Shown one piece after another: positions 8,722-61,694 of a DNA stretch of 64,000 bases; the stretch's first letter is position 1, and each line of letters opens with the position of its first letter. Below the pieces are notes generated by a model that saw only the letters and a program-made list of their open reading frames with translations, was not told the origin of the DNA and did no database searches. Made by a program: the position numbers and the translations under genes. The stretch covers positions 414-64,413 of the forward strand of contig JBEGIR010000026.1 in assembly GCA_040224245.1 (NCBI GenBank). The letters run 5' to 3'. This stretch comes from Puniceicoccaceae bacterium. GTDB taxonomy: Bacteria > Verrucomicrobiota > Verrucomicrobiia > Opitutales > JAFGAQ01.

Positions 8722-10410
<1,689 letters not shown>

Positions 10411-12127: not shown

Positions 12128-12188
12128 GGGCAAAGCAATTGGATATACAGAAATCGAACATTCGTTCCAACGACCACTCACCCGGAGG

Positions 12189-13937
12189 TCAGCCTGTCGC
12201 GGGATCGACCGGTAAGGTGACAGCGAAGACCTCGTCCAGCGTGGTCCACCCCATCAATGCTTTTTCTACCGCATCCTGACGCAGCGAGGCAAACTCTCTG
12301 TCATGTAAAAATCGACGCAGCCGTTGCAGCGACAGATGGGAGTCCATGAGTTCGCGCAAGGCTTCATCGACTTCCACGATTTCAAAAATCGCCAGCCTTC
12401 CCCGGTATTGTGAGCCATCCTGCCCTGCCTGAAAAAAGGTCGCACCCGCGAGTTCCTCAAATCCCGGACCGAGCATTCGCACCTGCCACGGTTGAATCAC
12501 AAATGGCAGCGCTGCCTGTGCCGCGATACGACGGACCAGTCGCTGGGCCAGCACGGCGCGTAACGCAGCGGCCAGCAGCGCTGGGCGAACGCCCATGTCC
12601 ATCAATCGAGTGAACGCACTGGGCGCGTCGTTGGTGTGCAAGGTGCTGAATACCGCATGTCCCGTCAACGCAGCGTGCACCGCAATGTCGGCAGTTTCAG
12701 TGTCCCTGATCTCCCCAACCATGATCACATTCGGAGCCTGGCGCAGCATCGAACGAAGGGCTGCACTGAAGGTGAGTTCCACCTCGGGTCGCACCTGCAC
12801 CTGATTGATACCATCCATCTGGATTTCCACCGGATCTTCAATCGTGAGAATCTTGCGTGAAGCCTCATTGAGATGACTCAATGCGGAATACAGTGTAGTG
12901 GATTTCCCGGACCCTGTCGGCCCCGTGACCAGCACCATTCCGTCCGGCGCGGTGATGGCTCGTTCGAATGCATCCCGATGCGCAGGCAGCATTCCCAACT
13001 CATCGAGATCGAGCTGCATACTCTGTGTATCGAGGATGCGGATCACGATGCCTTCACCGTGAGTCGATGGCACCGTCGAAACCCGAAAATCCACCGAACG
13101 TTCCGCGTCATCCACCTGAAAATGACCATCCTGTGGCAATCGTTTTTCGGCAATGTCCATGCCTGCCATCAGCTTGACCCGTGAGAGGATCGCTTCCTGA
13201 CGCTCCAACGCGGGTTGGTCAAGGCGCTGGAGCACACCATCCACACGACACCGGATCTGGAAGTGTTGCGCCATGGGTTCAAAATGAATGTCCGATGCCC
13301 GGCGCCGCATGGCTTCCGTCAAAATCCAATCCACATAGCGACTCACCTGGCCCTCCAGATCCCCATCCCGCGCACTTCTTGTGCTTGGAGGCGATTCCTG
13401 CACCATGCCGAGTTTTGACACTTGCATCGCAGCCGATGTGGTTTCATCCACCCGCACCCTTTCTTCCGGGACGTTCGCTCCATAGAGGCGATTTCGCCAG
13501 CTCTGAAAGCTTGCCTTCGGGACCAGCACCACTGCCACATCCATATCGAGCTGACAGGCAATCCGATCAAGCGCATCATAATCGCAGGGATAGGTCTGCG
13601 CGAGCGTGAGTTCTCCTTCTGCAGACTCCAGGGGGATCACGGAAAATTCATCGACAACCGCTGCGGGCACCCATGCGCGCAGATGCTGCGCTTCAGATTC
13701 CGACAGAGCCTCATCCAGATGACTGCGAAAGCCTATCCCTTCCCGATCCGCAATGCATTGCAGCAGTGCTTCCTCATCCAGCCACTGCCGCTCGATCACC
13801 GCATCGTACACCGCTGACTCGCGACGCATGGGATGGGTGTCAACGCCAAGACTCTCGATCAAGGCGTTGGCATCTTCGCTCGTGCAATAACCCTTCCCGA
13901 TCAGAAGGCGGAGGAGAAAACTGTGAACAGGAGGCAC
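12189..13937 (-). CDS. GspE/PilB-family secretion or pilus-assembly ATPase (paralog 1)
   Basis: SDIHFEP, RVDGVL, Walker [13 protein letters not shown] and [19 protein letters not shown]. Adjacent to pilT. Confidence 0.9.
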
Positions 13938-13956: not shown

Positions 13957-15984
13957 TCACCTCGCCGCTGTCATCAAAAATTCCGCATTCGATCCGGTTT
14001 TTTTCACCTTGGAAATCAGCATTTCCATCGCATCGGTGGAGGGTACTCCCTTCATCGCACGTCGCAGACCATAAATTTTCTGCAACTCATCCGGATGGTA
14101 CAGCAGTTCCTCCTTGCGGGTACCGCTCTTTTCCATGCTCAGCGAAGGAAAGACGCGCTTGTCCACCAGGGCGCGATCCAAATGAAGCTCCATGTTACCC
14201 GTTCCCTTGAACTCCTCAAAAATGACTTCATCCATTTTGCTTCCAGTCTCGACGAGCGCGGTGGCGATGATGGTGAGGCTGCCTCCTCCTTCGATATTGC
14301 GTGCCGATCCGAAGAATCGCTTGGGTTTTTGCAGCGCATTGGCCTCAACTCCCCCCGAAAGGATTTTGCCGGAGTTCGGCATGACCGTGTTGTAGGCCCG
14401 GGCCAATCGGGTGATCGAATCGAGCAGAATGATGACATCCTTGCCCGCCTCCACCATGCGCCGGGATTTTTCGATCACCATTTCAGCAGCGTGCACATGG
14501 CTCTCGGCATTTTCGTCAAAGGTCGAACTGATGACCTCACCGCCCTTTACCCTGCGCCGGAAATCCGTCACTTCTTCGGGGCGCTCGTCGATCAGCAGGA
14601 TGATCAGGTGTGCGTCAGGATAGTTTCGCTGAATCGAATTGGCCATGCCCTGCATCAACACCGTTTTACCCGTGCGGGGTGGCGCAACAATCAATCCCCG
14701 CTGACCAAATCCGATCGGTGAAATCAGGTCGACCACCCGCATGGAAACCTTGTTGGCATCCTCCTGCTTGTCAGACTCCAGAAAAATGCGACTGGTCGGA
14801 TAGTAGGGAATCTGTTCCGTGAAGGGGACCAGTTCGTTCGCCTTTTCCGGTTCCATGCCCTGCACCTGCAGCACTTCGACCACCAGCGGACACGACGCTT
14901 CCTCTACTGGCGGGATGACCCGGCACTTCAATTCATGCCCCCGCAGCAATCCAAATTTCTTGATGAAAAAGGCGGGTACAAAAGCGCTGTGCGCACGAAG
15001 CCGATAGCTGTCCGAGCTGTAAGTGAGCAAACCGTTGCCATCTGCAAGCACCTCAAGAATACCCCGCAACTCGATGCGCTGCTGTTTCCCGTGAGCATGG
15101 CTCAAGAGTCGCTCAATCAGCTGCTTGCGATTGGGTGCCGACGGAAGCTGCTCACCAGTCGCTTGTGCCGCCTCACGCAACTGGTCCAGCGGCAGTGTAT
15201 ACGCTTCGTCAAACGCAAAAACCTCATCTGTCAGTTCGGGCTGCTGTTCGGCAATGTAGCTGGCAAGCGCAGATTCACTCTGGATGGTTTCCCATTCGGG
15301 CAGTTGCCCCAGTTCCAGGGAATTGTCGATATCAGCGTTGAGGCCATCAATCTTGAAGCGATCTTTCTTTCCTTTTTTAGGACCACCACCTTGCTGCTGT
15401 TGTTTGTGCTTCTGCTTCCACTGCTGCTGTTTTTTCTTGCGATTGGACATCTGCCCCTGCTGGCCGCCATGACCATGAGGTCCCTTGTTCGGTTTGTTGC
15501 CCTTGTTGAAATGGGGGTGGTTTCCCTTTGAAAAGCCCTGTCGGTTTCCAGAGTTGGATTCTCCATCAGCGCCAGAGCCAGCGTCGTCATTCGATCCTTG
15601 CGCTGATTCTTTTGTTCCGTTGTCGCTGTGCTTTTCCGCATCCCCAGCCTTCTCGGACCGCTCTTTCGCTGCATCAGCTGCTTCCACTTCGTCGCTGCTG
15701 AAAAGGAGTTGGCGCTGACCTTCCGAGTCCTTTTTCTTTGTCGCCGCACTGCGACGGACCGACCCTTTCTCCGAGCGTTCAGAGGCCCCATCCGAAGCTT
15801 CAGGGGCTACTGTGACCCCATCGTCGGCTTTTTTTCTTCCCCGTCTCACTGGCTTTGGAGCAGATTCACCCTCGGGTGCTTCCGCTTTCTTGCGCGTGGT
15901 CGTGCGCTTTGCCTTGGGTTTCGGGGTTGCATCCGACACGTCAATCGGACCAGGTACAAATGCATCTTGGTTTTCGTCACTCAT
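13957..15984 (-). CDS. rho: Transcription termination factor Rho with a ~265-aa basic low-complexity N-terminal extension
   Basis: The C-terminal two thirds are canonical Rho ([44 protein letters not shown]). The N-terminus is rich in K/Q/G/N. Confidence 0.95.
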
Positions 15985-21956: not shown

Positions 21957-23633
21957 ATGTTCGACCACCGAAACCGTGATCTTGCTGCTGCACTTTCCTC
22001 CCATTCCTCATTCCGCGACGATGTGCTGCAGACGTTGCTTGACGAAGCAAGGGAACAGCAACGCAGCCTGGGCGAACTGCTACTTGCGCGTGGCAGCATC
22101 TCTCGCCTGGAGTTGCTGACTGCGGTTTCAACATTCCTCGGCATCCCGTTTCGGGATCCCGATGCCGATCCGGAGTTCGAGGCAAATCTCAGTAAGGCAC
22201 AATCCTGTATCCCGCTCGAGATCGCGCAGGCTCGCGGTGTGCTTCCGCTGCGCAGAGAAGGCGATTGTCTCTGGATCGCTGCCATTGATCCGTTCGATCC
22301 TGATCTGTGCACCGATTTTGCGCATCTGCTCGGCTGCAGCGTCAGACTCGAATTGATCGATCCGGACTGGGTTCACCAGCAACTCTCTCATTCGTACAGC
22401 ACAGCACCAACGACCTCGATCCGTGAATCAGGCGATGCTTCCGACGCCCCTGCGTCCGTGATCGAGTATGTGGATTTCCTACTGCAAACCGCCATCCTCG
22501 ACGGGGCATCCGACCTGCATCTCGAACCCATGCAGCAAAGCTTTCGCATCCGCTATCGCGTGCATGGTGAATTGCGCCACATTCCCACTCCGTCCCGTCT
22601 CGAAGGCGCTTCCATTACCGCACGCCTCAAAGTCATGGGACATCTCAATGTGACCGAAAACCGTGTACCTCAGGACGGACGGCTGACAGTGTCTCTGCAG
22701 GATCGTCAGGTGGACGTTCGTATCTCAACGCTACCGACCCATTGCGGCGAAAGCATTGTGCTGCGTTTTCTCGATCAGGCACGCATTCCCCTGTCTTTGG
22801 ATCAACTGGGTCTACCCCCGGACATGTTGCATGCCGTCCGAAAAGTCATCCGTCAACCCAACGGAATTCTTCTCGCAACCGGTCCCACCGGGAGCGGGAA
22901 AACCACCACACTCTACAGTGCGCTGCGCGAGTTGGATCTCGATGGAAGCAAACTGCTCACCGTGGAAGATCCGGTGGAATTCGACATCGATGGCATGGTG
23001 CAAGTCCAGACCCAAGCCTCCATCGGACTCGATTTCGCTCGCACGCTGCGTGCGTTTCTCCGGCACGACCCCGATACACTGTTCATCGGAGAAATCCGGG
23101 ATGCCGAGACCGCCAAAATCGCCGTGCAGGCATCGCTCACGGGTCACCGCGTTTTCAGCTCACTGCACACTCAGGATGCAGCAGGTGCAGTGCCACGATT
23201 CGTGGACCTCGGAGTGGAACCGTACCTGGTTGCGGCCGCGCTATCTGGAGTCATTGCACAGCGTCTGTTGCGCAAACTGCACCCGCAATGCAGCGAAAGC
23301 TACGTGCCCGATGATGCCGAACTGGACGCCCTCGGACTGGATCGTGTCACGCTCGCAGGCCGTCCGCTGCAACGCGCCATCGCACACACTCCCGGGCAGC
23401 ACCATGTCGACGACATGGGTCGAATTGGCATCTTTGAATTCCTTCCCATCTGCGATGCACTGCGCGAGGAAATCAGCGCGGGAGCCTCCCACCGACAACT
23501 CCGTACCTTTGCACGGCGCCAGGGCATGCGTACTCTTCGTGAACACGGCATTGCCCTTTTACTGGAGGGAATCACCACCAGTCAGGAGCTGTTGCAACAC
23601 CTCGGCATCGCTGAAAGCGAACCCCCAAAATGA
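21957..23633 (+). CDS. GspE/PilB-family ATPase (paralog 2)
   Basis: T2SSE_N-like N-terminus (SLGELLLARGSISRLELLTAVSTFLGIPF), SDLHLEP, Walker A GPTGSGKTTTLY and IGEIRDAETA. Confidence 0.9.
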   Translation: MFDHRNRDLAAALSSHSSFRDDVLQTLLDEAREQQRSLGELLLARGSISRLELLTAVSTFLGIPFRDPDADPEFEANLSKAQSCIPLEIAQARGVLPLRREGDCLWIAAIDPFDPDLCTDFAHLLGCSVRLELIDPDWVHQQLSHSYSTAPTTSIRESGDASDAPASVIEYVDFLLQTAILDGASDLHLEPMQQSFRIRYRVHGELRHIPTPSRLEGASITARLKVMGHLNVTENRVPQDGRLTVSLQDRQVDVRISTLPTHCGESIVLRFLDQARIPLSLDQLGLPPDMLHAVRKVIRQPNGILLATGPTGSGKTTTLYSALRELDLDGSKLLTVEDPVEFDIDGMVQVQTQASIGLDFARTLRAFLRHDPDTLFIGEIRDAETAKIAVQASLTGHRVFSSLHTQDAAGAVPRFVDLGVEPYLVAAALSGVIAQRLLRKLHPQCSESYVPDDAELDALGLDRVTLAGRPLQRAIAHTPGQHHVDDMGRIGIFEFLPICDALREEISAGASHRQLRTFARRQGMRTLREHGIALLLEGITTSQELLQHLGIAESEPPK

Positions 23634-28288: not shown

Positions 28289-29302
28289 TCATTCGGTTGG
28301 GACTTCCGTGATCGTCTTGAGCACGCGCGAAACGATGCGGTATGGATCTCCCTGAGAATTCGGACGACGGTCTTCGAGGTAACCCCGATACGCACCGTCC
28401 TTGACAAAGGAATGCGGCACCCGAATCGACGCTCCACGGTCGGCAATGCCCCAACTGAACTTGTCGATCGACTGCGTTTCATGCAGACCCGTCAGGCGCA
28501 GATGGTTGTCCGGTCCATAGGCTGCGATGTGCTCGTCACGATTCTTTTCAAATGCATCCATCAGACGCAGGAAGTAATCCTTACCTCCCACCTCACGCAT
28601 GAATTTTGTCGAAAAGTTACAGTGCATGCCAGAACCATTCCAGTCGCCCTGGTAGGGCTTGCAGTGCCACTGCACATCCACCTGGTACTTCTCACACAGA
28701 CGCAACAGGAAGTAACGCGCTACCCACACGTCATCTGCAGCCTTGGCGGAACCTTTACCAAAGACCTGGAACTCCCACTGGCCCTTCGCCACTTCGGCGT
28801 TAATGCCTTCATGGTTGATCCCGGCTTCAAGGCAAAGGTCAAGATGCTCCTCAACGATTTCACGAGCAATATCACCCACGTTGTTGTATCCCACACCCGT
28901 GTAATACTTGCCCTGCGGTGCCGGATAACCGTCTGTCGGCCATCCCAACGGCTTTCCATCCTGCATCAGGAAATACTCCTGCTCCAGTCCAAACCATGCA
29001 TCTGGGTCTTCAATGATCGTTGAACGGTAGTTGGAGGGATGTGGAGTGCCGTCCGGATTCATCACTTCGCACATCACAATGTAACCGTTGGTGCGTCCAG
29101 CATCAGGATACAGCGCCACCGGCTTCAACAGACAGTCCGAATTGCTTCCGGGTGCCTGCTGCGTGGAGCTTCCGTCAAACCCCCACCACGGGCAATCTTC
29201 GACGCTCTGCGGAGCCGACGAGGCAATGCGGGTCTTTCCACGAAGGTTAGCGACTGGTTGATATCCATCCAGCCAGATGTATTCTAACTTGTATTTTGGC
29301 AT
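28289..29302 (-). CDS. glnII: Glutamine synthetase type II (eukaryote-like GSII)
   Basis: YIWLDG, FDGSSTQQA, GLEQEYFL, NAEVAKGQWEFQV, GSGMHCNFS and ASIRVP...GYLEDRRP are GSII hallmarks. 337 aa. Confidence 0.92.
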   Translation of the reverse strand: MPKYKLEYIWLDGYQPVANLRGKTRIASSAPQSVEDCPWWGFDGSSTQQAPGSNSDCLLKPVALYPDAGRTNGYIVMCEVMNPDGTPHPSNYRSTIIEDPDAWFGLEQEYFLMQDGKPLGWPTDGYPAPQGKYYTGVGYNNVGDIAREIVEEHLDLCLEAGINHEGINAEVAKGQWEFQVFGKGSAKAADDVWVARYFLLRLCEKYQVDVQWHCKPYQGDWNGSGMHCNFSTKFMREVGGKDYFLRLMDAFEKNRDEHIAAYGPDNHLRLTGLHETQSIDKFSWGIADRGASIRVPHSFVKDGAYRGYLEDRRPNSQGDPYRIVSRVLKTITEVPTE

Positions 29303-43686: not shown

Positions 43687-44799
43687 TCAAGGAAGCTGAT
43701 CCAACAGCTTGCGCGCCTCCCGATAGGTATCCCGATCCCACTCAGACCGAACGACTTCCAGATAGGAGCGCGCCCGGTCGATTTCGTCCAACTCAATGAG
43801 GCATTGTGCCATTTTCAATGGCAGTAAATAGAAGTATTCCTGCTCCACCATTTCTGCCGTCAGCCGCTTCTGCAACCGTTGGTACTCCTCAACAGCCTCC
43901 TGATAAAAATGCTCCCCCTGAAGAATCGTGCCGATGCGAAATGAACTCCAGTTGCCGATATCCTCCGCACCCGCCTGGTATGCAAGATCCCGACTGCGTT
44001 GGTACACTTCGAGCGCATCCAATGGCTTGTGGTTGATCTGGTGGGAACGCCCGAGAAAATAGGCAAACAGAGGATTCGCCGGGTATTGCCGGACCAGGGG
44101 TTCAAATCCGGCGATGGCCTTTGGCCCGTCCTCCGCAATACTGTAGTGAAAATAGGCCACATAGTAGCTGGCCTCCACGATGGTCCACTCCCCTTCTTCC
44201 ATGCAGCGCTGAAGCTTTTCGATTCCCGCCTGCGCTGCACCGCGAAAGCCCAGTAATCGGGCAAGCGGTTTCAGCAGAGTCGGTGCATCTGAAAGAAAAG
44301 CTTCCGCAACGCCCAATGCAAAATAGGCGTCAGCATAATTGGGTTCTTCTTCAACCAGTGAACGCAGGATGCTCAAGCCCTCCCGTGCATCGAGATAGGC
44401 ACGAAACCACGAAGATTCCTCCACATAAAACCGGGCGCGGTTGCAGCGGTTGACGCCATAAAAAAACCGCGCCTGCAGGTCGGATTTGTCTTCTTTGTAC
44501 CAGCGCTGCGCAAGATCAATGGACTCCGAAAGTCGCTCCTCCGCACGTTTGCGTTTGGCTTCGTCAATTCGATCAGCCTGATAAATCCAGTAGGCAGCAG
44601 TCGATGCCACAAACGCATGCACGGGATCATTCCGGTCAAAAGCCTCGGATTCATACCAGTCAAACGCCTGTTGCTCAAAATTGTAGGCCCGTTCGATTGA
44701 TTCCATCAACCGCTCCCGTTCCACCTCAGAAGCGGCCATACTCCATCCGCCAAGAAGGAGGCATATCCTTAAGATGCAACTGAATCGTGAGCAAAACAT
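43687..44799 (-). CDS. Hypothetical TPR-like helical-repeat protein with a signal peptide
   Basis: Hydrophobic N-terminus and repeated Ala/Tyr-rich helical hairpins (YADAYFALGVAEAF, YYVAYFHYSIAE). No catalytic motifs recognised. Confidence 0.5.
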   Translation of the reverse strand: MFCSRFSCILRICLLLGGWSMAASEVERERLMESIERAYNFEQQAFDWYESEAFDRNDPVHAFVASTAAYWIYQADRIDEAKRKRAEERLSESIDLAQRWYKEDKSDLQARFFYGVNRCNRARFYVEESSWFRAYLDAREGLSILRSLVEEEPNYADAYFALGVAEAFLSDAPTLLKPLARLLGFRGAAQAGIEKLQRCMEEGEWTIVEASYYVAYFHYSIAEDGPKAIAGFEPLVRQYPANPLFAYFLGRSHQINHKPLDALEVYQRSRDLAYQAGAEDIGNWSSFRIGTILQGEHFYQEAVEEYQRLQKRLTAEMVEQEYFYLLPLKMAQCLIELDEIDRARSYLEVVRSEWDRDTYREARKLLDQLP

Positions 44800-46219: not shown

Positions 46220-47386
46220 TTGCAACAATTCCAAACGACCCTTCGTCTAGGAAAAGACATGCACGTTCACGCACCCAACACCCTTTCCGCAGCCAGCCCT
46301 GTTCAACCCCTGGCGTCAACGTTCCTTGCACGATTCACCGTCCTGGTCGCGCTGGTACTGATGGCAATGCAAACTGCATGCAATCCTTTCGCCAAAAAAG
46401 CTCCCGAGCTTGAACAACTGATGGATGCAGATTCCATGGCGGTGCTCTGGTGGGATGTTGCCGCAACTCCCATGGATTGGGAAAAAATCCGCAAAACCTG
46501 GCAGCAACACGAACCCGCCATGCGTGATGCACTGGGGGATGGTTTCAGCGATTCTCTCGAATCCGCTGGCATTCAGCCTGAAGATTTTTCCAAATTCATT
46601 CTGGTCGCTGACACACTGGATTTCTCTGAAAATGGAGACATCGAAGAGGCGTTGCTATCAGCATCGTGGATTCTCGGCATCGACTTGAACGGATACCTGG
46701 CGGCGGATGTGCTTGCGTTTGCCATCAATGCTCAAAGCGCACGCACCGGGCTGACAGCGCGCCAGTCAAGCAGTGAATCCCCCGGATTTGAACGAGTGGA
46801 TCTGTATGATACGGAGAGCCATACCCTGCGCTACTCGATTGCGGTCTTTGCAGCAGAAACCACCCAACTGCGCATCGGCACTCCCGAGAGGGTTCTGCGT
46901 TCGATTCATGCCCAGCCCGATGATCGCATGCCCATGCCCGAACCAACGCTTGCCCAGGAACCTTTCTGGTTTTTACTCAACACACCTGAAGCCCTTGCCG
47001 CGCAAGCTCGGGAATGGGAGAGCGCTCTGCCCATTGACACGGGCATGCTGTTGAGGGGGTTTGAATCCCTTCGAATCGCCAGCCAATGGAACGGTCAGGC
47101 ACTGGAATCCGTCGTCAGCCTTAACTTCGAAAACATCGACGGCGCAGACACTGCCTACTCCATCCTGAACCTGGCCCATCGCTTTGCGTTCAAGCCCGTC
47201 CTTCGCAAAAGCATCGGTGACGCCGATCACTTTCTACGGTCCCTTCGGCTCGAACGCAGAGGAACCCACGTGCACTACCGCTCGCGCTTGAACCCGGAAG
47301 ACGCCGCCGTCATACAGGCCTGGGCCGAACGCATGAACGCCTCGCCCGTTGTGCAGTTTGCTTTGGATTTGATTCAGACTCCCTGA
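46220..47386 (+). CDS. Hypothetical exported protein or lipoprotein
   Basis: Hydrophobic leader ending ...LMAMQTAC (a possible lipobox Cys). No recognisable domains, and the start is uncertain. Confidence 0.45.
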   Translation: MQQFQTTLRLGKDMHVHAPNTLSAASPVQPLASTFLARFTVLVALVLMAMQTACNPFAKKAPELEQLMDADSMAVLWWDVAATPMDWEKIRKTWQQHEPAMRDALGDGFSDSLESAGIQPEDFSKFILVADTLDFSENGDIEEALLSASWILGIDLNGYLAADVLAFAINAQSARTGLTARQSSSESPGFERVDLYDTESHTLRYSIAVFAAETTQLRIGTPERVLRSIHAQPDDRMPMPEPTLAQEPFWFLLNTPEALAAQAREWESALPIDTGMLLRGFESLRIASQWNGQALESVVSLNFENIDGADTAYSILNLAHRFAFKPVLRKSIGDADHFLRSLRLERRGTHVHYRSRLNPEDAAVIQAWAERMNASPVVQFALDLIQTP

Positions 47387-48550: not shown

Positions 48551-50374
48551 TCAATCGGGCCAGACGTAGGCTTCCATGTCGGGAGGAACAGTGGCCAACG
48601 CCTCTTCCATCGTCGTAACCCCTTCCTTCACTTTGAGAATACAGTCCTGATGCAGTGTTTTCATGCCATTGCGCATGGCGATGCGCTTGAGTTCGGCAGT
48701 TTCGAGTCCATCGTTGATGCCTTTGACCAGTTCTTCCGTCACGAGCATCAACTCGTGTACACCGACACGTCCCTTGTATCCACCCGTAGCTGCATTGGGT
48801 CCCGTTGCGCTGGCGCGGTAGATTTCTCCGACCCAGCGCAATGCACGCTCGATGATCTCGGCCTCATTTCCCTCTGGCACATAAGGTTCACGGGAAATCT
48901 TGCAAACCCTCCGCATGAGGCGCTGGGCGCAGACGCAGAGCAGGGATGCCGAAATCATGAACGGTTCGATGTTCATGTCCGTCAGTCGAGCCACCGCACT
49001 GGGCGCATCATTGGTGTGCAGAGTACTGAAGAGCAAATGCCCGGTCAGCGCCGCCTCAACTGCAATCTGTGCGGTTTCTTTGTCACGAATTTCCCCCACC
49101 AGAATGATATCCGGGTCCTGGCGGAGAAAGGCGCGCAGCGCGGCAGCAAACGTTAACCCGATCTTTCGATTCATCTGCATCTGGCAAAGACCGTTGAGTG
49201 TGTATTCAATGGGGTCCTCGGCCGTGCGAATGTTGATGTCGGGTGTATTGATCTCGTTGAGTGCAGAATACAGGGTCATGGATTTCCCCGAACCGGTGGG
49301 TCCGCAATGCAAGATCATGCCATAGGGACGCTGAATAACGTCACGGTAGCGCGTGAGATTGAATTCTGAAAATCCGAGAGCAGTGAGTGGCAGCGTACTC
49401 TTCTGTTTGTCCAGGATTCGCATGACCACCCCTTCACCATGGTTGAGCGGTGCGGTCGCTACCCGGAGGTCAATGTCGATGCCTTTGCGATTGAATTGCT
49501 TGTACACGATGCGCCCATCCTGAGGGATGCGTTTCTCAGCAATGTCCAGATTTGCCATCACCTTGAGTCGCGCAAGCAGTGAACTGCACACCTTTACCGG
49601 AATATTCAGCTTCTCCTGGCAAACACCGTCCACGCGCACTCGCACGCGTGCTTCGTTTTCAAAAGGTTCGTTGTGGATATCACTTCCGCCTGAATAATAA
49701 GCGTCTTCGATGATTCGATTGGCCAACTGAATGATGGGTGCCGACTCTTCCGATCCCTCATCATCCTCCTCAAAAACCGAATCCTCGATCTGGAACTCCA
49801 TACCGAGCTTCTCAACCACGTCACTGAACCCGATCGAAGCAGGATTCTGCTCAGGTTCCGATAGAATGTGATCGAGAACACCCTCAAGCGCGAGCAGTAC
49901 AACCACTCGCATCCGTGTTTTCTGGGCAATCTGATTCGTGAGCTGCAGTTTGAAAGGGCTGTTGAGTGCGACAACAAAATACTCCCCTACGACTCCGACC
50001 GGAAGCACCTTGTTCTCGAAACAAAAATCCCGGTCAAGCTTCTCAAATGTGAATTCATCAATGACAAAATTCCGAGCATTGAAGGGGTGCAGATCAAAGG
50101 CCCTTGCGCGTGCAATCAAGAGGGTTTCATCCGTGACACGGTGCTCTTCAAGCAGGAGTTTTTCGATCGCATCTCCCGACAAATCATTCTCAGAATTGAT
50201 GATGGAATCAGCGACATTGGGCGCGAGCACATTCAAATCCACCAGTTCCCGGATGATTTTGGTTTGGATTCTTCCTAAAGGCACAGCAACAGATCTGGGA
50301 ATTATACAAGTGAGTCGAACCGAGGCATTTGGCCATTTGATTCCATCACGGACGAGACAAAAACTGGGGAGCAC
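48551..50374 (-). CDS. GspE/PilB-family ATPase (paralog 3)
   Basis: SDIHNEP, Walker [13 protein letters not shown] and [15 protein letters not shown]. Lies directly downstream of a GspF-family gene. Confidence 0.9.
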
Positions 50375-50460: not shown

Positions 50461-51558
50461 TCAGATTCCCAAATTCTGCATCAATTCCACCATGGGTAGA
50501 AAGAGAGCAATCACCAGAAACCCAATGCTGAATGCCAGAAGGAGTATCAAGGCAGGTTCGAGCAGGGTCAGGAGATGGTCGAGGCGCTCTTCAACCTCCG
50601 TTTCAAACAGCTGAGCAATTTCGGTCAGCATGGAAGCCAGAGAACCCGTTGTTTCACCGACATGCACCATGCCTGCAAACGCTTCCGGCATGCGTTCATC
50701 CCGTTCCAGGCACAGTGCAATCGAACGGCCATCGCGGACCTGCTTTCGCAGCTTGTGCATGCTCTGCTCCAAAACGCGGTTTTGAAGGGTCGCCGATGCA
50801 GTTTCCAACGCCTCAAGCATGGGGACTGCACTTTCCAGCAAGGTTGCCAGACAGTGACAGAAACGAGCAAGAGCAGTTTTTTTGCGAAGATCCCCAAACA
50901 CGGGGAGCGCAAGAACCAGAGCATCCCACCGCTCCCGAAAGGACTCCACCCTGAGAAGAAATCCGACAAGCGGCAAAGCAAAGAAAAGTCCTGCGATACC
51001 CCAGCCTATATGGGAGGACACCCCATCGCTCACATCGATGACCCATTGTGTCATTCCGGGCAAACGAGCACCCTGAAGCATATTGCTGAACATTTCCTCA
51101 AATTGTGGAACCACCCACACCAACATTGCTCCCACTATGCTCAGCGAAGCCGCCAATACGACTGCCGGGTAAACCATTGCAGAGCGCAGTCTGCCGTACA
51201 TGCGTACTCGATGGGAGTCATAGCGAGCCAAGCGTTCCAACACCGAACTGAGGACCCCTGCACGCTCACCGGCAACAATCAACCCCACATACATGGGACC
51301 AAAGACTCGAGGCCAAACCCTCAGCGACGCCGAAAAGCTCTGCCCATGCTCGAGCATGTGAATCTGCTCCGTCACGATTCTGTTCATCGCTCCTTTCGAA
51401 TGCTGGCGCTGCAGAATTTGAAGGGCCTGAACAATGGGCACACCCGCTTTCAGCAAAGCTGCAAGCTGCTTGGAATACAGGGCGATCAGATTGGTCGGAA
51501 TGCGCAACCGCTCGCGCGATGACGCAAACCATGCAATGTGGGACAAGGCACGGAGCAT
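50461..51558 (-). CDS. Type II secretion / type IV pilus platform protein (GspF/PilC family)
   Basis: Two T2SSF repeats (LAALLKAGVPIVQAL...; LATLLESAVPMLEAL...), three TM segments and a C-terminal LPMVELMQNLG. Confidence 0.9.
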   Translation of the reverse strand: MLRALSHIAWFASSRERLRIPTNLIALYSKQLAALLKAGVPIVQALQILQRQHSKGAMNRIVTEQIHMLEHGQSFSASLRVWPRVFGPMYVGLIVAGERAGVLSSVLERLARYDSHRVRMYGRLRSAMVYPAVVLAASLSIVGAMLVWVVPQFEEMFSNMLQGARLPGMTQWVIDVSDGVSSHIGWGIAGLFFALPLVGFLLRVESFRERWDALVLALPVFGDLRKKTALARFCHCLATLLESAVPMLEALETASATLQNRVLEQSMHKLRKQVRDGRSIALCLERDERMPEAFAGMVHVGETTGSLASMLTEIAQLFETEVEERLDHLLTLLEPALILLLAFSIGFLVIALFLPMVELMQNLGI

Positions 51559-51688: not shown

Positions 51689-53425
51689 TCACAAGGAATA
51701 ACGCCAATCAATCAGTGTGGCCTGGGGATAACCTCGCCCTTTCCATTCATGCCATTTGAGGTGAAACAGAATATCCAACGGGTAGCGGCTCTCGGGGATT
51801 CGGGAGGGAAATCCCCACCCAAGGCACATCAGATCATAGTCCATTCCCCACAAACTCACCCAACACTTAAAATTGTCCGCTCCAAACCGGGACACACGCG
51901 AGGCGAGCTGAGCTCCCCGCATTGCGAGCACCGGATCCGGGTTTCCCACCCCAAACGGTCCCAGGCGGCGCAGTTCTGCCATGAACGGCAGCGTCAAATC
52001 CGCAGCCTGCACCCACGCGTCCACTTCGACACTCATCGGTTCCACAGGTTGGCACTGCTCACCTGAAGGATCGACCTGAACAGTGATCGCTTTCGAAAAG
52101 GTTCTCCGGAACACATCAAGGTTTTCCGGTCGCACGCTTAACCCTGCCGCCATGGGATGACCACCCCAACTCTCAAGATAATCCTCGCACTGAGCCAATG
52201 CATCGATGATGTTCACCCCTTCGATACTGCGGGCAGATCCCCTGGCCAAATCCCCTTCCAATCCCAGCACAACGGTCGGTACACCAAACTGTCTCGCGAT
52301 TCGACTGGCTACAATGCCAACCACGCCGGAATGCCATTGGGAATCGTAGAGCACTACAGACTCGTGTGGACTCTTGCGAGAGAGATAACTGATCGCCTGC
52401 TCATGCATCTCCCGCTCGGTCGACTGGCGGTCCTGATTGAGCGAATCCAGCTCGTGAGCGAACTTGACACACGCACTGTACTGCTGACAGGTCAGCAGGT
52501 TCACGGAAGTCGTTGCATCGGCCATGCGCCCGCCCGCGTTGATTCGCGGACCGATCTTGAAACTCACGTCGCTGACATCGAGATCCTGCCCATAAGGAAG
52601 TCCGCACACATCCATCAGCGCCTGAAGCCCCATGTTCTTGCTCTTGCTCATGCGGTGCAGTCCATGACTCACCAATACCCGATTCTCACCCGTCAGTGGG
52701 ACCAAATCGGTCACCGTACCCAGTGCCACCAGATCGAGTTGATCCTTGAGGCTCAACGCATCAGCGGCCGTATGACCGGAAGACCTCAGGCGCATTAGCA
52801 ACGCTTGCATGAGCTTGAACGTCAGTGCCACCGTACAAAGCATGATCGCTTCCTGCGCTTCGTCAGGATAGAGGTGCGGATTCACAATAATCGCTTCCGG
52901 ATGCACTGTTGATCGCACTTGATGGTGGTCGATGATGAGCACATCGAGTCCGTGTTCACGCAGTGCCTCGATTGACTCCCGATCATTGCTGCCACAATCC
53001 AGCGTCACGACGAGATCAAAATCCGCCTTATCGTGCAACAGACGCGACTGCACAAGTCCGAGGCTTAGGCCGACTCCATCATCGGATCGCTTGGGGACCG
53101 AGTGATGCGGCTCCAAGCCCAATTCCCGCATGACGTTGACAAAGAGGGCGGTGCTGGTCACCCCATCCACATCGTAATCCCCCAGCACAAATACGCGTTC
53201 CTGTTTCTGAATTGCCTGGATGAGCCGCTGCACGGCCTTCTCCACACCCGGAATGCTGAAAGGACTGGCCAACTGGGACAAACGGGGCTGAAGAAAGCGT
53301 TTCACGGTCTTCAGGGATGCCGTTTGCCGACGCGCCAGGAGCACTGCGGTGGTACGGCTGAGGCCGAACTCCTTCATCAGAAGTTCGGCCCGTTCGTTAT
53401 CAAAGGCCTTGAGGGTCCAACTCAA
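51689..53425 (-). CDS. recJ: Single-stranded-DNA-specific exonuclease RecJ
   Basis: DHH motifs (GDYDVDGVTS, LVVTLDCGS, IIDHH) and the DHHA1 GGHPMAAG motif. Confidence 0.93.
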   Translation of the reverse strand: MSWTLKAFDNERAELLMKEFGLSRTTAVLLARRQTASLKTVKRFLQPRLSQLASPFSIPGVEKAVQRLIQAIQKQERVFVLGDYDVDGVTSTALFVNVMRELGLEPHHSVPKRSDDGVGLSLGLVQSRLLHDKADFDLVVTLDCGSNDRESIEALREHGLDVLIIDHHQVRSTVHPEAIIVNPHLYPDEAQEAIMLCTVALTFKLMQALLMRLRSSGHTAADALSLKDQLDLVALGTVTDLVPLTGENRVLVSHGLHRMSKSKNMGLQALMDVCGLPYGQDLDVSDVSFKIGPRINAGGRMADATTSVNLLTCQQYSACVKFAHELDSLNQDRQSTEREMHEQAISYLSRKSPHESVVLYDSQWHSGVVGIVASRIARQFGVPTVVLGLEGDLARGSARSIEGVNIIDALAQCEDYLESWGGHPMAAGLSVRPENLDVFRRTFSKAITVQVDPSGEQCQPVEPMSVEVDAWVQAADLTLPFMAELRRLGPFGVGNPDPVLAMRGAQLASRVSRFGADNFKCWVSLWGMDYDLMCLGWGFPSRIPESRYPLDILFHLKWHEWKGRGYPQATLIDWRYSL

Positions 53426-57564: not shown

Positions 57565-58497
57565 TCAGTCGCGGCTTTGACAGAGCAGGATGGGGATGCG
57601 ACAGTCCCGAATAATGGATTTTCCAATGGGTGTACCCAACCCGTGAAACAAGTGACCACCCCGACTCGCACCAATGACAAGGAGATCTGCCCGGATTCGT
57701 TGAACAGCCTCAATGACCGTTTCATCTTTCGAACCCTGGAGTTTCTCAATCAGAACCTCGGCACCTGCCCGCTGCAACCCCGGAACACTGGCTTCGATTT
57801 CACCCGGAATCCCATCTTCGAAGGTGTGCATCAGGTGAACCTGAAGGCCAGTCGGATCGAGATCACGCTGAAACACATCCATTACAAATCTCCATTTCTG
57901 GTCATCGGCGAGCACACAGGCAACCTTACGAATGGGTTCCCATCGGCGTGATGAAAGCAGACAGGGTACCTGTGCATGCCGGAGAAAACGTCCCAGGTTT
58001 GCACCAAGGTGCTCCTGATCGTAGGAGAAACTGTCACCACGCTTGCCAAAAACCACATGAGAATAGCCTACTCCGCTGGGGTTCAATGCTTCCGAGGGAC
58101 GTCCTCGCCCGACGACAAAATCAAATCGGTCCCGCCACGGGGTTTCCTGAAGCACCTGCTTCACACGTCGTTCCAACTCTTCCAGGAGATCCTGCTCCTG
58201 TTTGTGGATCTCACTGAACAATCCATTGCAAGGTTGCAAACCGATTCCAGCACCCAGCTCATTCACCACAGGAACTTGATACTTCGAAACATCCGCAATA
58301 TGAGTCACGATCAGGCGCTGAGCACCCACCCTGTCTCCCAGCCAGACAGCATGCATGAGCGACGGTTCAGTGTAGTCGGACCCATCAACACAAACCAGGA
58401 TGTTCGCAGCTTTGGAACTCGGCGGTTTCACAACAGGACGGGATTCGGCAGGGTTCTCAGAAGTGGGTGTTTGCGGGCACGATTGCGTCCTTCGCAA
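57565..58497 (-). CDS. Tandem universal-stress-protein (UspA) domain protein
   Basis: Two USP-like halves (ILVCVDGSDY...; ADLLVIGASRGGHLFHGLGTPIGKSIIRDCRIPILLC). The track start overlaps glgC by 41 bp, whereas the in-frame GTG at 58431 avoids the overlap. Confidence 0.75.
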   Translation of the reverse strand: MRRTQSCPQTPTSENPAESRPVVKPPSSKAANILVCVDGSDYTEPSLMHAVWLGDRVGAQRLIVTHIADVSKYQVPVVNELGAGIGLQPCNGLFSEIHKQEQDLLEELERRVKQVLQETPWRDRFDFVVGRGRPSEALNPSGVGYSHVVFGKRGDSFSYDQEHLGANLGRFLRHAQVPCLLSSRRWEPIRKVACVLADDQKWRFVMDVFQRDLDPTGLQVHLMHTFEDGIPGEIEASVPGLQRAGAEVLIEKLQGSKDETVIEAVQRIRADLLVIGASRGGHLFHGLGTPIGKSIIRDCRIPILLCQSRD

Positions 58498-59737
58498 CCA
58501 TCAGAATGCCATCGCGAATGGTGATCCCATTCGGATATTGCCCATCATCTTTCCCCTCAGGACTCAATATCACATTATCCCCCAGTCGCGCATTTTTGTC
58601 GATGATCGCATTCGTGATCACACAGTTGTTGCCAACCCCCAGCCGAGGAATTCCGCGCACAGCCTTGCCTTCATAATCCGACTCGTCTTCATAGCTGTCA
58701 TTGCCCATCATCACAACATTGGTGAACTTCACATTCTCCCCCACAATACTGCGAACACCGACTACACTGCGCCGAATCTCTGCACCACGGATGATGCAAC
58801 CGTCTGCAATCATGGCTCGGTCCACAGTGCTGTTGATGATCACCGATGCAGGCAAAAACCGCGCACGTGTGAAAATGCGGTCATGCGGATCAAAAAAATC
58901 GAAAGGCGGATTTTCATCCGTAAGCTTGAGATTTGCCTCAAAAAACGCCGCTACAGTTCCGATGTCTTCCCAGTACCCATCAAAGATGAAACTCCGCAGT
59001 TTTTTCTTCCCCAACAGATCCGGGATGATTTCCTTCCCAAAATCCGTGTGCTCCGAGTCGAGTGCATCGATCAATACCGGAGCATTGAAGAGATAGATCC
59101 CCATTGAGGCCAGGCAAGCGCGCTCGGATGAATCCCGACCCACGGTTTGCAGTAATTTCTGGCTTACGAGATACTCATTGATCACTGCAGGATCGGTCGG
59201 TTTTTCGACAAATGAACTGATGCTGAAATCATCGTTCGATTTCATCAGGCCAAACCCCGATACTTCTGCTTCGGGAATCGGAGTTGCTGCGATCGTCGCA
59301 TCCGCACCACATGCGCGGTGGTGTTCGATCAATTCGCGAAAATCCATGCGGTAGAGCTGGTCACCGGATAGAATCAGGATCAGGTCCTTCTTGCCCGCAC
59401 CAAAGTGGATCAGATTCTGTCGCACCGCATCAGCTGTCCCTTGATACCAGTTGTCCCCCTTTTCCGTTTGCTCTGCCGACAGGATGTCCACCAAACCACC
59501 GCTAAACGGATCAAAGGAGTAGGTCGCCTGAATGTGACGGTGCAGCGAAGCCGTATTAAACTGCGTCAACACGTAAATTTCATTCAGTCCCGAGTTCAGG
59601 CAATTGCTGATCGGTATATCCACCAACCGGTATTTCCCGGCAAGCGGCACCGCAGGTTTACAACGGGGCTGGGTGAGAGGGTATAGCCGCGTGCCACGTC
59701 CGCCTCCAAGAACGATACTGATGATGCGAGATCTCAT
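58457..59737 (-). CDS. glgC: Glucose-1-phosphate adenylyltransferase
   Basis: LGGGRGTRLYPLT, GKYRLVDIPISNC, WYQGTADAV and a left-handed beta-helix C-terminal domain. Confidence 0.93.
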   Translation of the reverse strand: MRSRIISIVLGGGRGTRLYPLTQPRCKPAVPLAGKYRLVDIPISNCLNSGLNEIYVLTQFNTASLHRHIQATYSFDPFSGGLVDILSAEQTEKGDNWYQGTADAVRQNLIHFGAGKKDLILILSGDQLYRMDFRELIEHHRACGADATIAATPIPEAEVSGFGLMKSNDDFSISSFVEKPTDPAVINEYLVSQKLLQTVGRDSSERACLASMGIYLFNAPVLIDALDSEHTDFGKEIIPDLLGKKKLRSFIFDGYWEDIGTVAAFFEANLKLTDENPPFDFFDPHDRIFTRARFLPASVIINSTVDRAMIADGCIIRGAEIRRSVVGVRSIVGENVKFTNVVMMGNDSYEDESDYEGKAVRGIPRLGVGNNCVITNAIIDKNARLGDNVILSPEGKDDGQYPNGITIRDGILMVAKDAIVPANTHF

Positions 59738-60109
59738 ATTGGGATAATTGGGTTGATGGGTTTAAAGGAACCTCGGGGACCGCTGCCAACACCCGGCAGC
59801 CACATTCAAGCATGGGTCAAGCCTGGCAAATCTTCAACCCATTTTGTCGCGTTTGCAGTAACAATTGCTCTTCCGTTCCCCTCTTTCACATCTGGTGATT
59901 ACGACACGGGGCAACGCCCTTCATCAACTTCATGTTCCACAGGGGCAAACAGTCCATTTATTCACAAAAATAGATTGCTTTAAACAAATGACAGGCAAAG
60001 AGTTAATGTCGTTCTTGACATTTTGCAATGCTACGACATTAGTGAACAACAAGCGGCAGAGCGACAGTGACGCTGCCATTCTTTTTTGGTCTCACCCGAT
60101 TTCCCTACA

Positions 60110-61471
60110 ATGCGCTTCGATCGACTCATTTCCCAAAACCGAATCATCGACATCAAATCCAAAGATTTGAGGGGAGCATTTACCGAGCTGATCGAGTCTT
60201 TCAACATACAGGAGTCCAAAACACTCACGAAGCGGCGCATCTTGAACGATCTGCTCGACCGCGAAAAAACACGCACCACCTATCTCGGTGATGGCGTCGC
60301 GATTCCCTACGCCCGCATTAACTGGACGCGCGGTTACGGCGTGGCAATCGGACGCTGTGCGGAGGGTCTCAGCCATGACAGTCCCAGTGAGTATGGAAAA
60401 GTCCGCATCATCGTACTCCTTCTCGTGCATGAAAAAGCGCGCAACTATGTGCGCGTTCTCTCAGACTTTGCCCAGATCATCCGAGAGGAATCCATCATCG
60501 ATTCCCTGCTTTTTGCAGATTCGCTTCAGGAATTCCGCAAGGTCGTCAAACAAGTTTTCAGCGGAGTCACCAAACACCCGCAGATCGAATACTCGCGCAT
60601 CAACCGCAACATCATGAAAGAAGCGGAAAAGATAGCGCAAATGTCACAGTGCACCTCGATCATGATTTTTGGAGATACCTTCAGTTCTTCCTTTTTTGAA
60701 TTGGGTGTCGATATCAAGGGCCTCAAAACCGTGCTGATCTCACCCGGAAAATCCGACTACTCGGGAAATCTGCCAAAGATGGACCATATCATCCCCCTGA
60801 GAAGCTACTCCAATACCCGGCTTTCCCAGATGCGCAGTGCATTCATTATCGCGCTCGGAAAGGGTGTATTCAACACAGAGGAGGTCGTTTGCTGTGTTGG
60901 AGGAGTTCCTAAGAGCAATCTGCTCGATACCATCATTGTTGTGGATGTGGACAAGGAGTTTCAGACACTCATTCCAGGCAAGAGCAATGTGATCCCTCCC
61001 GGCGTACAGGTCGAGGTGCTTGAGCGCGTTCTCACCATCGCCACCGAATTGTCCATGGAAGGACGGGAGGGCAAACCTGTTGGCGCGCTATTTGTCATCG
61101 GGGATTCAGAGGTGGTCATGGAGCACGCTCAGCCCTTACTGCTCAATCCCTTTTTCGGCTACAGCGAAGACGAACGCAATGTGCTCAATCCGTTTATGGA
61201 TGAAACCGTCAAGGAGCTTTCCAGTATTGATGGCGCCTTTGTGATTCGCGGAAATGGTGTGCTTGAATCCGCAGGCAGTTTACTGCGACCCACCAAATAC
61301 CCGCAGAATCTGCCGAGCGGCCTCGGGTCACGCCATGCGGCTGCAGCCGGGATCACGCTCAGCTTCAAGTGTGTCGCGATCGTTGTGTCCTCAAGCACGG
61401 GTCACGTCAGTCTGTTCAGTGGCGGTGACATGATCACGCTCACTGAAAAGAAGATCGGAGGCAATTTTTAG
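60110..61471 (+). CDS. EIIA(Ntr)-like domain + alpha/beta regulatory module + diadenylate cyclase (DAC) domain protein
   Basis: The C-terminus carries GALFVIG, IDGAFVIRG, LGSRHAAAAGIT and IVVSSSTGHVSLF (DAC signatures). The N-terminus has LGDGVAIPYAR / VRIIVLLLV (PTS EIIA type-2 fold). The ATG at 60110 is preferred over the TTG at 60086. Confidence 0.8.
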   Translation: MRFDRLISQNRIIDIKSKDLRGAFTELIESFNIQESKTLTKRRILNDLLDREKTRTTYLGDGVAIPYARINWTRGYGVAIGRCAEGLSHDSPSEYGKVRIIVLLLVHEKARNYVRVLSDFAQIIREESIIDSLLFADSLQEFRKVVKQVFSGVTKHPQIEYSRINRNIMKEAEKIAQMSQCTSIMIFGDTFSSSFFELGVDIKGLKTVLISPGKSDYSGNLPKMDHIIPLRSYSNTRLSQMRSAFIIALGKGVFNTEEVVCCVGGVPKSNLLDTIIVVDVDKEFQTLIPGKSNVIPPGVQVEVLERVLTIATELSMEGREGKPVGALFVIGDSEVVMEHAQPLLLNPFFGYSEDERNVLNPFMDETVKELSSIDGAFVIRGNGVLESAGSLLRPTKYPQNLPSGLGSRHAAAAGITLSFKCVAIVVSSSTGHVSLFSGGDMITLTEKKIGGNF

Positions 61472-61526: not shown

Positions 61527-61694
61527 ATGCCAAGAGAACATGTCATTTTGGAATGCACTGAAGCGCGTGCCGAGGGAAAACCTCCCTCACGCTACATGAG
61601 CACCCGCAACAAAAAGCTGACGCCAAACCGGGTCGAAAAGAAGAAATACAACCCGCACCTGCGTCGCCACACGGTGCACAAGGAGATTAAATAA
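61527..61694 (+). CDS. rpmG: 50S ribosomal protein L33
   Basis: Hand-translated 55-aa ORF, below the track cutoff: [55 protein letters not shown]. This is the typical L33 pattern. Confidence 0.9.

Follow-up and report, generated by a model that had tools for sequence, protein, structure and literature searches.

The gene and its product

We analyzed a stretch of 64,000 nucleotides (hereafter the window) from a Puniceicoccaceae bacterium of the Verrucomicrobiota (GenBank assembly GCA_040224245.1, contig JBEGIR010000026.1, positions 414 to 64,413 of the forward strand). An intact open reading frame (ORF) on its plus strand encoded a soluble three-domain protein of 453 amino acids (aa), in which a domain of the EIIA type of the phosphotransferase system (PTS) was followed by a DacZ_P domain and a diadenylate cyclase (DAC) domain. 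It was moderately probable that this protein was a cytoplasmic diadenylate cyclase from an EIIA-DacZ_P-DAC family found throughout the Verrucomicrobiota, its cyclase activity, i.e. synthesis of cyclic di-AMP (c-di-AMP), being a prediction from the sequence. In the clade to which it belonged, the position of the EIIA phospho-histidine was occupied by tyrosine. The features of the gene were the following.

60110..61471, stop codon included, plus strand: complete EIIA-DacZ_P-DAC gene (DacD-type diadenylate cyclase); ORF, translation, Pfam
60149..60553, plus strand: PTS EIIA type-2 / EIIA-Ntr-like domain, aa 14-148; Pfam PF00359, phmmer, Foldseek
60308..60310, plus strand: Tyr67 codon TAC, at the EIIA phospho-His position; PtsN alignments
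60374..60376, plus strand: His89 codon, an aromatic residue (Tyr/Trp/Phe) in relatives; column statistics, PtsN alignment
60611..60967, plus strand: DacZ_P domain, aa 168-286, pyruvate-kinase-C-terminal-like alpha/beta fold; Pfam PF21755, profile search, Foldseek
61052..61429, plus strand: diadenylate cyclase (DAC/DisA_N) domain, aa 315-440; Pfam PF02457, phmmer, Foldseek
61229..61237, plus strand: DGA catalytic motif, D374-G375-A376; alignment to Listeria CdaA
61331..61339, plus strand: R408-H409-A410, the RHR counterpart; alignment to Listeria CdaA
61388..61399, plus strand: S427-S-S-T430, the counterpart of S-E-E-T in CdaA; alignment to Listeria CdaA

An initial annotation, made from the letters of the window alone, had proposed these three domains in this order, and Pfam recovered each of them above its gathering cut-off: PTS_EIIA_2 (E=1.6e-15, 57.7 bits vs 27), DacZ_P directly N-terminal of the cyclase domain (E=5.9e-9, 36.1 bits in the full protein vs 27.4) and DAC (E=1.2e-20, 73.7 bits vs 27). 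The ATG at 60110 was preferred as the start codon over an upstream TTG at 60086 because all homologues of the cyclase began with MR[FI]D[RK]. Four independent metagenome contigs carried a called protein identical to the window cyclase. The AlphaFold2 model of the protein, computed from an alignment of 66 family sequences with 27-94% identity, had a mean predicted local distance difference test score (pLDDT) of 84 and a predicted template modelling score (pTM) of 0.74, and it showed all three domains well folded. A hydrophobicity scan found no transmembrane helix in the protein; its peak 19-residue window (1.7) lay within the DAC core, where it was modelled as a helix and a strand. Pfam detected neither a helix-hairpin-helix (HhH) domain nor a DisA linker domain, and only 13 residues followed the C-terminal DAC domain. 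The same scan and the Pfam search thus bore out the earlier description of a soluble, DacZ-type protein devoid of transmembrane helices and of HhH/linker domains.

The closest species-representative genome, the Opitutales metagenome-assembled genome (MAG) CAXXVT01, carried a frameshifted copy of the gene with 94% identity (locus L008, 6001-7358), in which a 1358-nt match contained 23 in-frame stops past the frameshift. It was probably an assembly indel and not the mark of a pseudogene. Owing to this frameshift, L008 was left out when ratios of nonsynonymous to synonymous substitution (dN/dS, omega) were computed, and the DNA of P0001 and P0002 was taken instead.

Family, taxonomy and earlier classification

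A homologue search covering 5.8 billion proteins returned 2505 matches. The best 119 full-length homologues all had the three-domain layout and 451-454 aa, and one additional match, P0011, was a fragment. Those among the best homologues that bore a taxon name came from Opitutales, Coraliomargarita, Lentimonas, Puniceicoccaceae or 'Verrucomicrobiota'. A scan of species-representative genomes, with one genome per species, identified at least 524 stretches encoding a relative of the cyclase, and the best 80 of them were nearly all Opitutales-type records. Additionally, residues 160-453 were used as a HMMER query against representatives of 50%-identity clusters, which gave 1369 relatives, including 256 below 1e-30. 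Three domains were present in 76 of the best 150, and another 54 of the 150 had the two-domain DacZ_P-DAC layout. The named members of distant three-domain clusters belonged to Opitutales, Verrucomicrobiia or Verrucomicrobiota, and the nearest two-domain clusters included MAGs of Planctomycetota and Chlamydiota.

Braun et al. 2019 (PMC6741144) listed a bacterial class 'DacD', in the nomenclature of Corrigan & Gruendling 2013, with representatives from Lacunisphaera, Puniceicoccaceae, Coraliomargarita, 'Opitutae' and Verrucomicrobia. The taxa of the named homologues of the window protein matched those of the DacD representatives, while the subclade of the window protein differed by the tyrosine in place of the EIIA histidine. 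We take DacD to be defined as a fusion of PTS_EIIA_2 with DAC. Look-ups of the homologue clusters did not bring up the UniProt accessions of the DacD representatives. Pfam holds a dedicated DacZ_P model, and in a 2026 survey 19 gut Verrucomicrobiota species were recorded with an enzyme of the DacZ type and no other DAC (PMC12901056). Since the DacD taxa agreed, at least 524 stretches encoded a relative and a DacZ_P model exists, the architecture was both catalogued and widespread. The initial annotation had allowed for an architecture that was widespread and already functionally described; the former proved to be the case, together with its classification, but a functional description was not found. 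As judged from the sequence, the window protein is a new member of a class that has been catalogued but not studied by experiment, and its clade is marked by the loss of the phospho-histidine.

In public records (P0026, P0035, P0095, P0119, P0130 and others), this one protein went by two kinds of name, 'PTS sugar transporter subunit IIA' on the one hand and 'diadenylate cyclase' / 'DisA with diadenylate cyclase activity' on the other. The former name is misleading for a soluble cyclase. Three MAGs labelled Yoonia sp., Polaribacter sp. and Zhongshania aliphaticivorans (L018, L034 and L086, respectively) carried an Opitutales-type copy with 50-52% identity, and these contigs were most likely mis-binned.

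The catalytic domain

The C-terminal domain matched structures of CdaA, DisA and CdaM (phmmer; Foldseek probability 1.00), and the alignment to Listeria CdaA placed the diadenylate cyclase signatures, including the DGA motif at 61229, where they had first been read. The segment S-I-D374-G-A-F-V-I aligned to hDGAviI of Listeria CdaA, sharing DGA as well as hydrophobic residues, and DGA was kept in all 80 species genomes that gave the best 80 of the at least 524 stretches. Residues D374, G375, A376, R408, H409, S427 and S429 were invariant among the 66 aligned sequences. Further downstream, IVVSSSTG of the window protein aligned to IVVSEETG of CdaA. The second position of this S-x-S-T motif varied family-wide (E/Q/G/S/A), S427 and S429 being invariant and T430 nearly so.

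The initial annotation had also pointed out an alanine in place of the second arginine of the RHR motif. This substitution was present, since GSRHAAAAGIT aligned to GTRHRAALGIS of Listeria CdaA, but it need not be a mark of degeneration. Throughout the DacZ-like branch, whether or not an EIIA domain was present, the residue after R-H was A in 69 sequences, T in 16, Q in 12, R in 9, H in 8, and others in the rest. Because the third residue varied to this extent, RHA was probably a trait of the lineage and not a defect.

The DAC domain of CdaA (DacA) and DisA was homologous to that of the window protein and shared DGA and R-H, but the surroundings differed. CdaA has three N-terminal transmembrane helices, whereas the window protein had none and began with a globular EIIA domain; DisA carries a C-terminal linker and an HhH DNA-binding domain, neither of which was found here. 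Within the domain itself, two departures from CdaA, namely alanine as the third RHR residue and Ser-Ser for the Glu-Glu pair, might indicate a catalytically dead or repurposed DAC, acting for example as a sensor of c-di-AMP or ATP. We considered this very unlikely. Both the RHA and the S-S states were family-wide and common to the two-domain DacZ-like proteins, and the DAC domain was the most constrained part of the cyclase (dN 0.03-0.10), with DGA, R and H invariant. The enzyme was conserved in hundreds of species, with no other DAC type where this has been tabulated (PMC12901056). Finally, archaeal DacZ and CdaZ are active: the DacZ of Haloferax volcanii (HVO_1660) and the CdaZ/DacY of Methanocaldococcus jannaschii are demonstrated c-di-AMP synthases (PMC6741144).

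The middle domain and the relation to archaeal DacZ

When the middle domain was searched alone, DacZ_P was its only match in sequence searches, with 39.8 bits against the cut-off of 27.4. A profile of the domain matched the pyruvate kinase C-domain of 6du6 (E=5.5e-5); dozens of further pyruvate kinase matches were marginal. A separate model of the domain had a pLDDT of 85.7, and all of its top 50 Foldseek matches in the PDB were pyruvate kinases, with query-normalized TM-scores (TMq) of 0.50-0.64. The profile match and the 50 structural matches supported the view that this module was pyruvate-kinase-C-like, as in DacZ/CdaZ. Its most conserved motif was C-V-G-G-x-P-x-S-x-x-L-D-T, in which G265 was nearly invariant and D273 invariant. 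In the profile alignment, this motif (vvcvgGlp.ksgllDT) lay opposite the pyruvate kinase loop VVVVTGWKqGSGFTNT, and the 'TGW-x-GSGFTNT' loop is part of the fructose-1,6-bisphosphate effector site. The alignment of the two loops suggests that DacZ_P may contain a pocket for a small phosphorylated metabolite.

Archaeal DacZ/CdaZ enzymes shared with the window protein the layout of a PK_C-like domain followed by DAC. The NCBIfam DacZ model (NF041371) matched aa 193-442 of the window protein with 122.9 bits against an equivalog cut-off of 430; by this measure, the window protein is related to the haloarchaeal DacZ but is not its equivalog. In contrast to the archaeal enzymes, it was bacterial, and an additional EIIA domain of about 150 aa formed its N-terminus.

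The EIIA domain and Tyr67

The N-terminal domain matched the PtsN structures 4gqx, 2a0j and 3urr at about 1e-8 (phmmer), and its modelled fold agreed with the EIIA-Ntr crystal structures 2a0j/3urr with target-normalized TM-scores (TMt) of 0.81-0.83 (Foldseek). It missed the NCBIfam equivalog cut-offs for PtsN (TIGR01419, 39.8 vs 138.7 bits; NF008145, 23.6 vs 221 bits), and the FruA-IIA model also matched the N-terminus of the cyclase below its cut-off. The domain shared with EIIA-Ntr/PtsN the fold and the active-site signature R-E ... G-x-G-x-A-x-P-[H]. However, PtsN is free-standing while the EIIA domain of the window protein was fused to an enzyme, and the phospho-histidine of PtsN was here a tyrosine.

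Alignments to the sequences of PtsN crystal structures placed Tyr67 exactly on the phospho-histidine of G-x-A-I-P-H. Accordingly, the EIIA domain of the Tyr67 proteins was no canonical phosphorelay member, as the initial annotation had stated. Position 67 was histidine in 109 of 121 sequences (the window protein and its 120 best homologues) and tyrosine in the other 12. In the species genomes, it was histidine in 78 and tyrosine in 2 of the best 80 of the at least 524 stretches. Among the 77 representatives of 50%-identity clusters that bore an EIIA domain, we found 70 with His, three with Gln, and one each with Asn, Arg, Ser and Tyr.

The 12 tyrosine-bearing sequences consisted of the window protein and the 11 homologues nearest to it, all with at least 72% identity. 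In neighbor-joining (NJ) trees, this Tyr clade was monophyletic and nested, and each successive sister group carried histidine. Since the clade was nested in this way, histidine was the ancestral state and tyrosine a single derived substitution. The codon was TAC in some members and TAT in others, and a sequencing artefact was ruled out by 12 independent sequences with two codons. The earlier picture of a DacZ-type cyclase that had acquired a degenerate EIIA domain therefore had the history reversed: the fusion was old and widespread in Verrucomicrobiota, and histidine prevailed in it (78/80 and 70/77).

The EIIA domain of the Tyr clade was not degenerate either, being conserved like that of its His-bearing relatives. 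Within the clade, EIIA identity was 0.70-0.77 at a DAC identity of 0.85-0.92; His-bearing pairs matched for DAC identity gave 0.71-0.76. Residues R51, E52, T56, G60, G62, P66, R69, Y76, G81 and R82, which are conserved in the family, were all kept. EIIA dN was 0.07-0.31, dS was saturated even between 94%-identical proteins, and omega was about 0.03-0.16. The matched-divergence identity and these omega values ruled out a decaying remnant. Purifying selection together with matched conservation implied that the EIIA domain of the Tyr clade was a selected, functional and non-phosphorylatable module. As far as the sequences tell, it is a working domain under strong purifying selection, without a phosphorylatable histidine at site 67.

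It was also conceivable, though unlikely, that the EIIA domain had never been a phospho-switch in this family but served only as a scaffold for oligomerization or packing, with a structural histidine and a neutral change to tyrosine. A PTS gene was linked to the cyclase in no lineage examined, histidine had given way to Gln, Asn, Ser, Arg and Tyr on independent occasions in several lineages, and the second active-site histidine of EIIA-Mtl/PtsN corresponded (by eye) to Tyr113 throughout the family. On the other hand, histidine was retained in about 90% of lineages at 27-54% identity, together with R51-E52 and the G-x-G-x-x-x-P-H signature that are characteristic of EIIA type-2 domains capable of phosphorylation. 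A residue with only a structural role should have drifted more on such an exposed active-site loop, and we therefore favored a phosphorylatable role for the ancestral residue.

Another explanation was that Tyr67 itself was phosphorylated by a bacterial tyrosine kinase, which would have replaced the PTS input. Tyr67 was indeed strictly conserved in the clade despite saturated synonymous divergence and the use of both codons. However, a structural role that mimics the dephospho state would account for this conservation equally well, and the scan of the window showed no tyrosine kinase. We know of no precedent for such an input at an EIIA site, and we regarded it as extremely improbable.

His89 and a possible reciprocal swap

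A second position distinguished the Tyr clade. His89 was present in 12 of its 12 sequences, whereas the corresponding residue was tyrosine in 96 of the 109 His67-bearing homologues and tyrosine, tryptophan or phenylalanine in 68 of the 77 distant representatives. This position lined up with the conserved phenylalanine of the P-I-x-F-[DE] segment of PtsN. The immediate NJ sister of the clade was a pair of sequences carrying both His67 and His89. There was thus an apparent reciprocal swap, with Y67/H89 in the Tyr clade and H67 plus Y/W/F89 in its relatives. His107 was likewise gained, in 10 of the 12 members.

The His67Tyr/Tyr89His swap could mean that the phospho-acceptor was relocated through an intermediate with two histidines. 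In that case, the acceptor would have moved instead of being lost, HPr or NPr would phosphorylate His89 in place of residue 67, and the enzyme would still be regulated by the PTS. The presence of His89 in all 12 sequences at a position normally aromatic in relatives would agree with this, as would the H67/H89 sister pair, which fits a path from HY through HH to YH. Apart from residue 67, the active-site loop (G60-x-G62-x-x-x-P66) was also kept, as were R51/E52. Nevertheless, this was a single evolutionary event, and even among the His67-bearing relatives about 9% had His89, which puts the chance of a coincidence at only about 1 in 10. PTS genes were not seen nearby in ORF scans of the window or by tblastn of the related loci. 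To our knowledge, there is no precedent for a relocated phospho-histidine in EIIA type-2 domains. On balance, the relocation appeared quite unlikely, and we retained the reading in which the EIIA domain of this clade has become a non-phosphorylatable module.

Gene neighborhood

The surroundings of the cyclase gene in the window contained the following features.

57565..58497, minus strand: universal stress protein (USP) family gene; Pfam Usp, E=4.7e-13
58457..59737, minus strand: glgC (glucose-1-phosphate adenylyltransferase), divergent neighbor; Pfam NTP_transferase + LbH_GLGC
59738..60109, no strand: divergent intergenic region between glgC and the cyclase gene, 372 bp; ORF map
61527..61694, plus strand: rpmG (ribosomal protein L33), 55 bp downstream of the cyclase gene; Pfam PF00471, coordinates from the L001 offset

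Pfam confirmed the glgC and USP neighbors named in the initial annotation, both upstream and on the minus strand. Downstream, rpmG was followed by an isochorismatase-family gene on the same strand as the cyclase. The order cyclase-rpmG-isochorismatase was kept throughout the Tyr clade (rpmG was called in L001-L006, L088 and L089), and the order of glgC and USP was common to the closest relatives of the window locus. At L005 (72% identity), glmS and gnd lay between glgC and the cyclase gene and the USP gene was gone. Outside the Tyr clade, glgC was absent from the other family contexts examined. In His-bearing Opitutales, a nuoA-like gene lay upstream at 73 of 82 loci and trpA downstream at 61 of 82, and two more distant lineages, one from Verrucomicrobiia and one bearing the Gln variant, had unrelated neighbors. 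Since the neighbors differed between clades outside the Tyr clade, a functional tie of the cyclase to glycogen or stress genes was weak, and the link that had been read into glgC and USP did not extend to the family.

The nuoA-like gene (PF00507, about 124 aa) stood alone about 115 bp upstream of the cyclase gene and on the same strand (9524-9898 at L007; loci L010-L087), and trpA began about 113 bp downstream (11488-12297 at L007; loci L010-L087). A solitary nuoA beside a cyclase gene was odd.

The initial annotation had also called for a search for c-di-AMP phosphodiesterases, riboswitches and other DAC genes. Among the 30 large ORFs of the window, Pfam found no second DAC, no c-di-AMP phosphodiesterase and no PTS component. 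Rfam gave no match in the window at gathering thresholds and none in the 5' intergenic region at E<=1, and in particular no ydaO-type riboswitch. A promoter and terminator scan around the cyclase gene found nothing above shuffled expectation. There was no ptsP, ptsO or rpoN context around the cyclase in the ORF scans of the window, and tblastn with the HPr/NPr proteins of E. coli and B. subtilis had no match in the DNA of the window and the related loci.

Two genes of the window were considered as candidate phosphodiesterases and rejected. The DHH-DHHA1 protein at 51689-53425 (minus strand), a candidate for GdpP/DhhP, contained RecJ_OB and was therefore RecJ. The HD_3 protein at 7576-8175 (minus strand), a candidate for PgpH, was YfbR-like instead.

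Other genes of the window

Four genes for secretion/pilus ATPases of the T2SSE family were present within the 64 kb (11063-12181, minus; 12192-13937, minus; 21957-23630, plus; 48554-50374, minus), as well as a T2SSF gene (50464-51558, minus). Three of the four T2SSE-family genes encoded N-terminal MshEN domains, a known module for binding cyclic di-GMP. An ORF of 337 aa at 28292-29302 (minus) combined Gln-synt_N with an incomplete glutamine synthetase catalytic domain, of which just the initial part was present, and its product may be a truncated or atypical glutamine synthetase. The Rho termination factor at 13960-15984 (minus) had 675 aa; its RNA-binding and ATPase domains started only at about aa 307, and it therefore had a long N-terminal extension. 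The window also contained a gene for a methyl-accepting chemotaxis protein (4737-6395, plus) and four large ORFs of 370-423 aa that had no Pfam match at E<=1e-5 (684-1952, plus; 3025-4236, plus; 43690-44799, minus; 46220-47383, plus).

Proposed mechanism and implications

In our model, two DAC domains would come together face to face, as they do in CdaA and DisA, and would convert two molecules of ATP to c-di-AMP. In most members of the family, a PTS phosphocarrier (HPr or NPr) would phosphorylate the EIIA histidine and would tune the cyclase through the pairing of DAC domains or through domain packing. In the clade of the window protein, this PTS switch would be hard-wired in a non-phosphorylatable, dephospho-like state. 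The EIIA domain would then persist as an allosteric or partner-binding and packing module, and the signal would enter mainly by the pyruvate-kinase-C-like DacZ_P domain and by protein contacts.

Several points weighed against this model. A literature search found no functional or enzymatic study of the EIIA-DacZ_P-DAC family, and the acidic pair in S-E-E-T of CdaA was replaced in the S-S-S-T of the window protein. Searches of the window, of about 1.1 Mb of related loci and of the surroundings of the cyclase gene in the lineages examined turned up no gene for enzyme I or for a PTS phosphocarrier. Because no enzyme I or HPr gene was linked to the family, ancestral phospho-control, and with it the phosphorylation of the His-bearing majority, is itself something that we infer. 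Finally, the gained His89 might offer an alternative phosphorylation site.

In many bacteria, the balance of potassium and osmolytes is under the control of c-di-AMP. Control of K+ uptake was a physiology that PtsN and c-di-AMP had in common, although in different phyla. The phosphorylation state of PtsN governs K+ uptake through TrkA and KdpD, and it is the dephospho form of EIIA-Ntr that controls K+ uptake in Proteobacteria (bioRxiv 10.1101/2023.07.05.547876). The fusion of an EIIA-Ntr-like domain with a cyclase suggests a direct wire from the phosphorylation state of the PTS, and hence from carbon, nitrogen or potassium status, to the synthesis of c-di-AMP.

The window copy itself was ordinary: it could be recognized as belonging to a catalogued family and carried one lineage-specific substitution. 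A bolder interpretation is that the Tyr clade represents a natural rewiring between the PTS and c-di-AMP, in which either the acceptor histidine moved from position 67 to position 89 by way of H67/H89 or the cyclase was locked in the dephospho state. We judged this proposal doubtful and rather improbable. A migration from 67 to 89, if true, would give EIIA type-2 domains their first described case of a phosphorylation site that moved. If instead the dephospho lock were true, it would tell whether the PTS acts positively or negatively on c-di-AMP synthesis, a link never studied in this phylum. The cyclase family occurred in hundreds of Verrucomicrobiota species, including the abundant marine polysaccharide degraders Coraliomargarita and Lentimonas, and the Tyr clade and its His-bearing relatives form a ready-made pair that would serve as a natural control for the link between the PTS and c-di-AMP.

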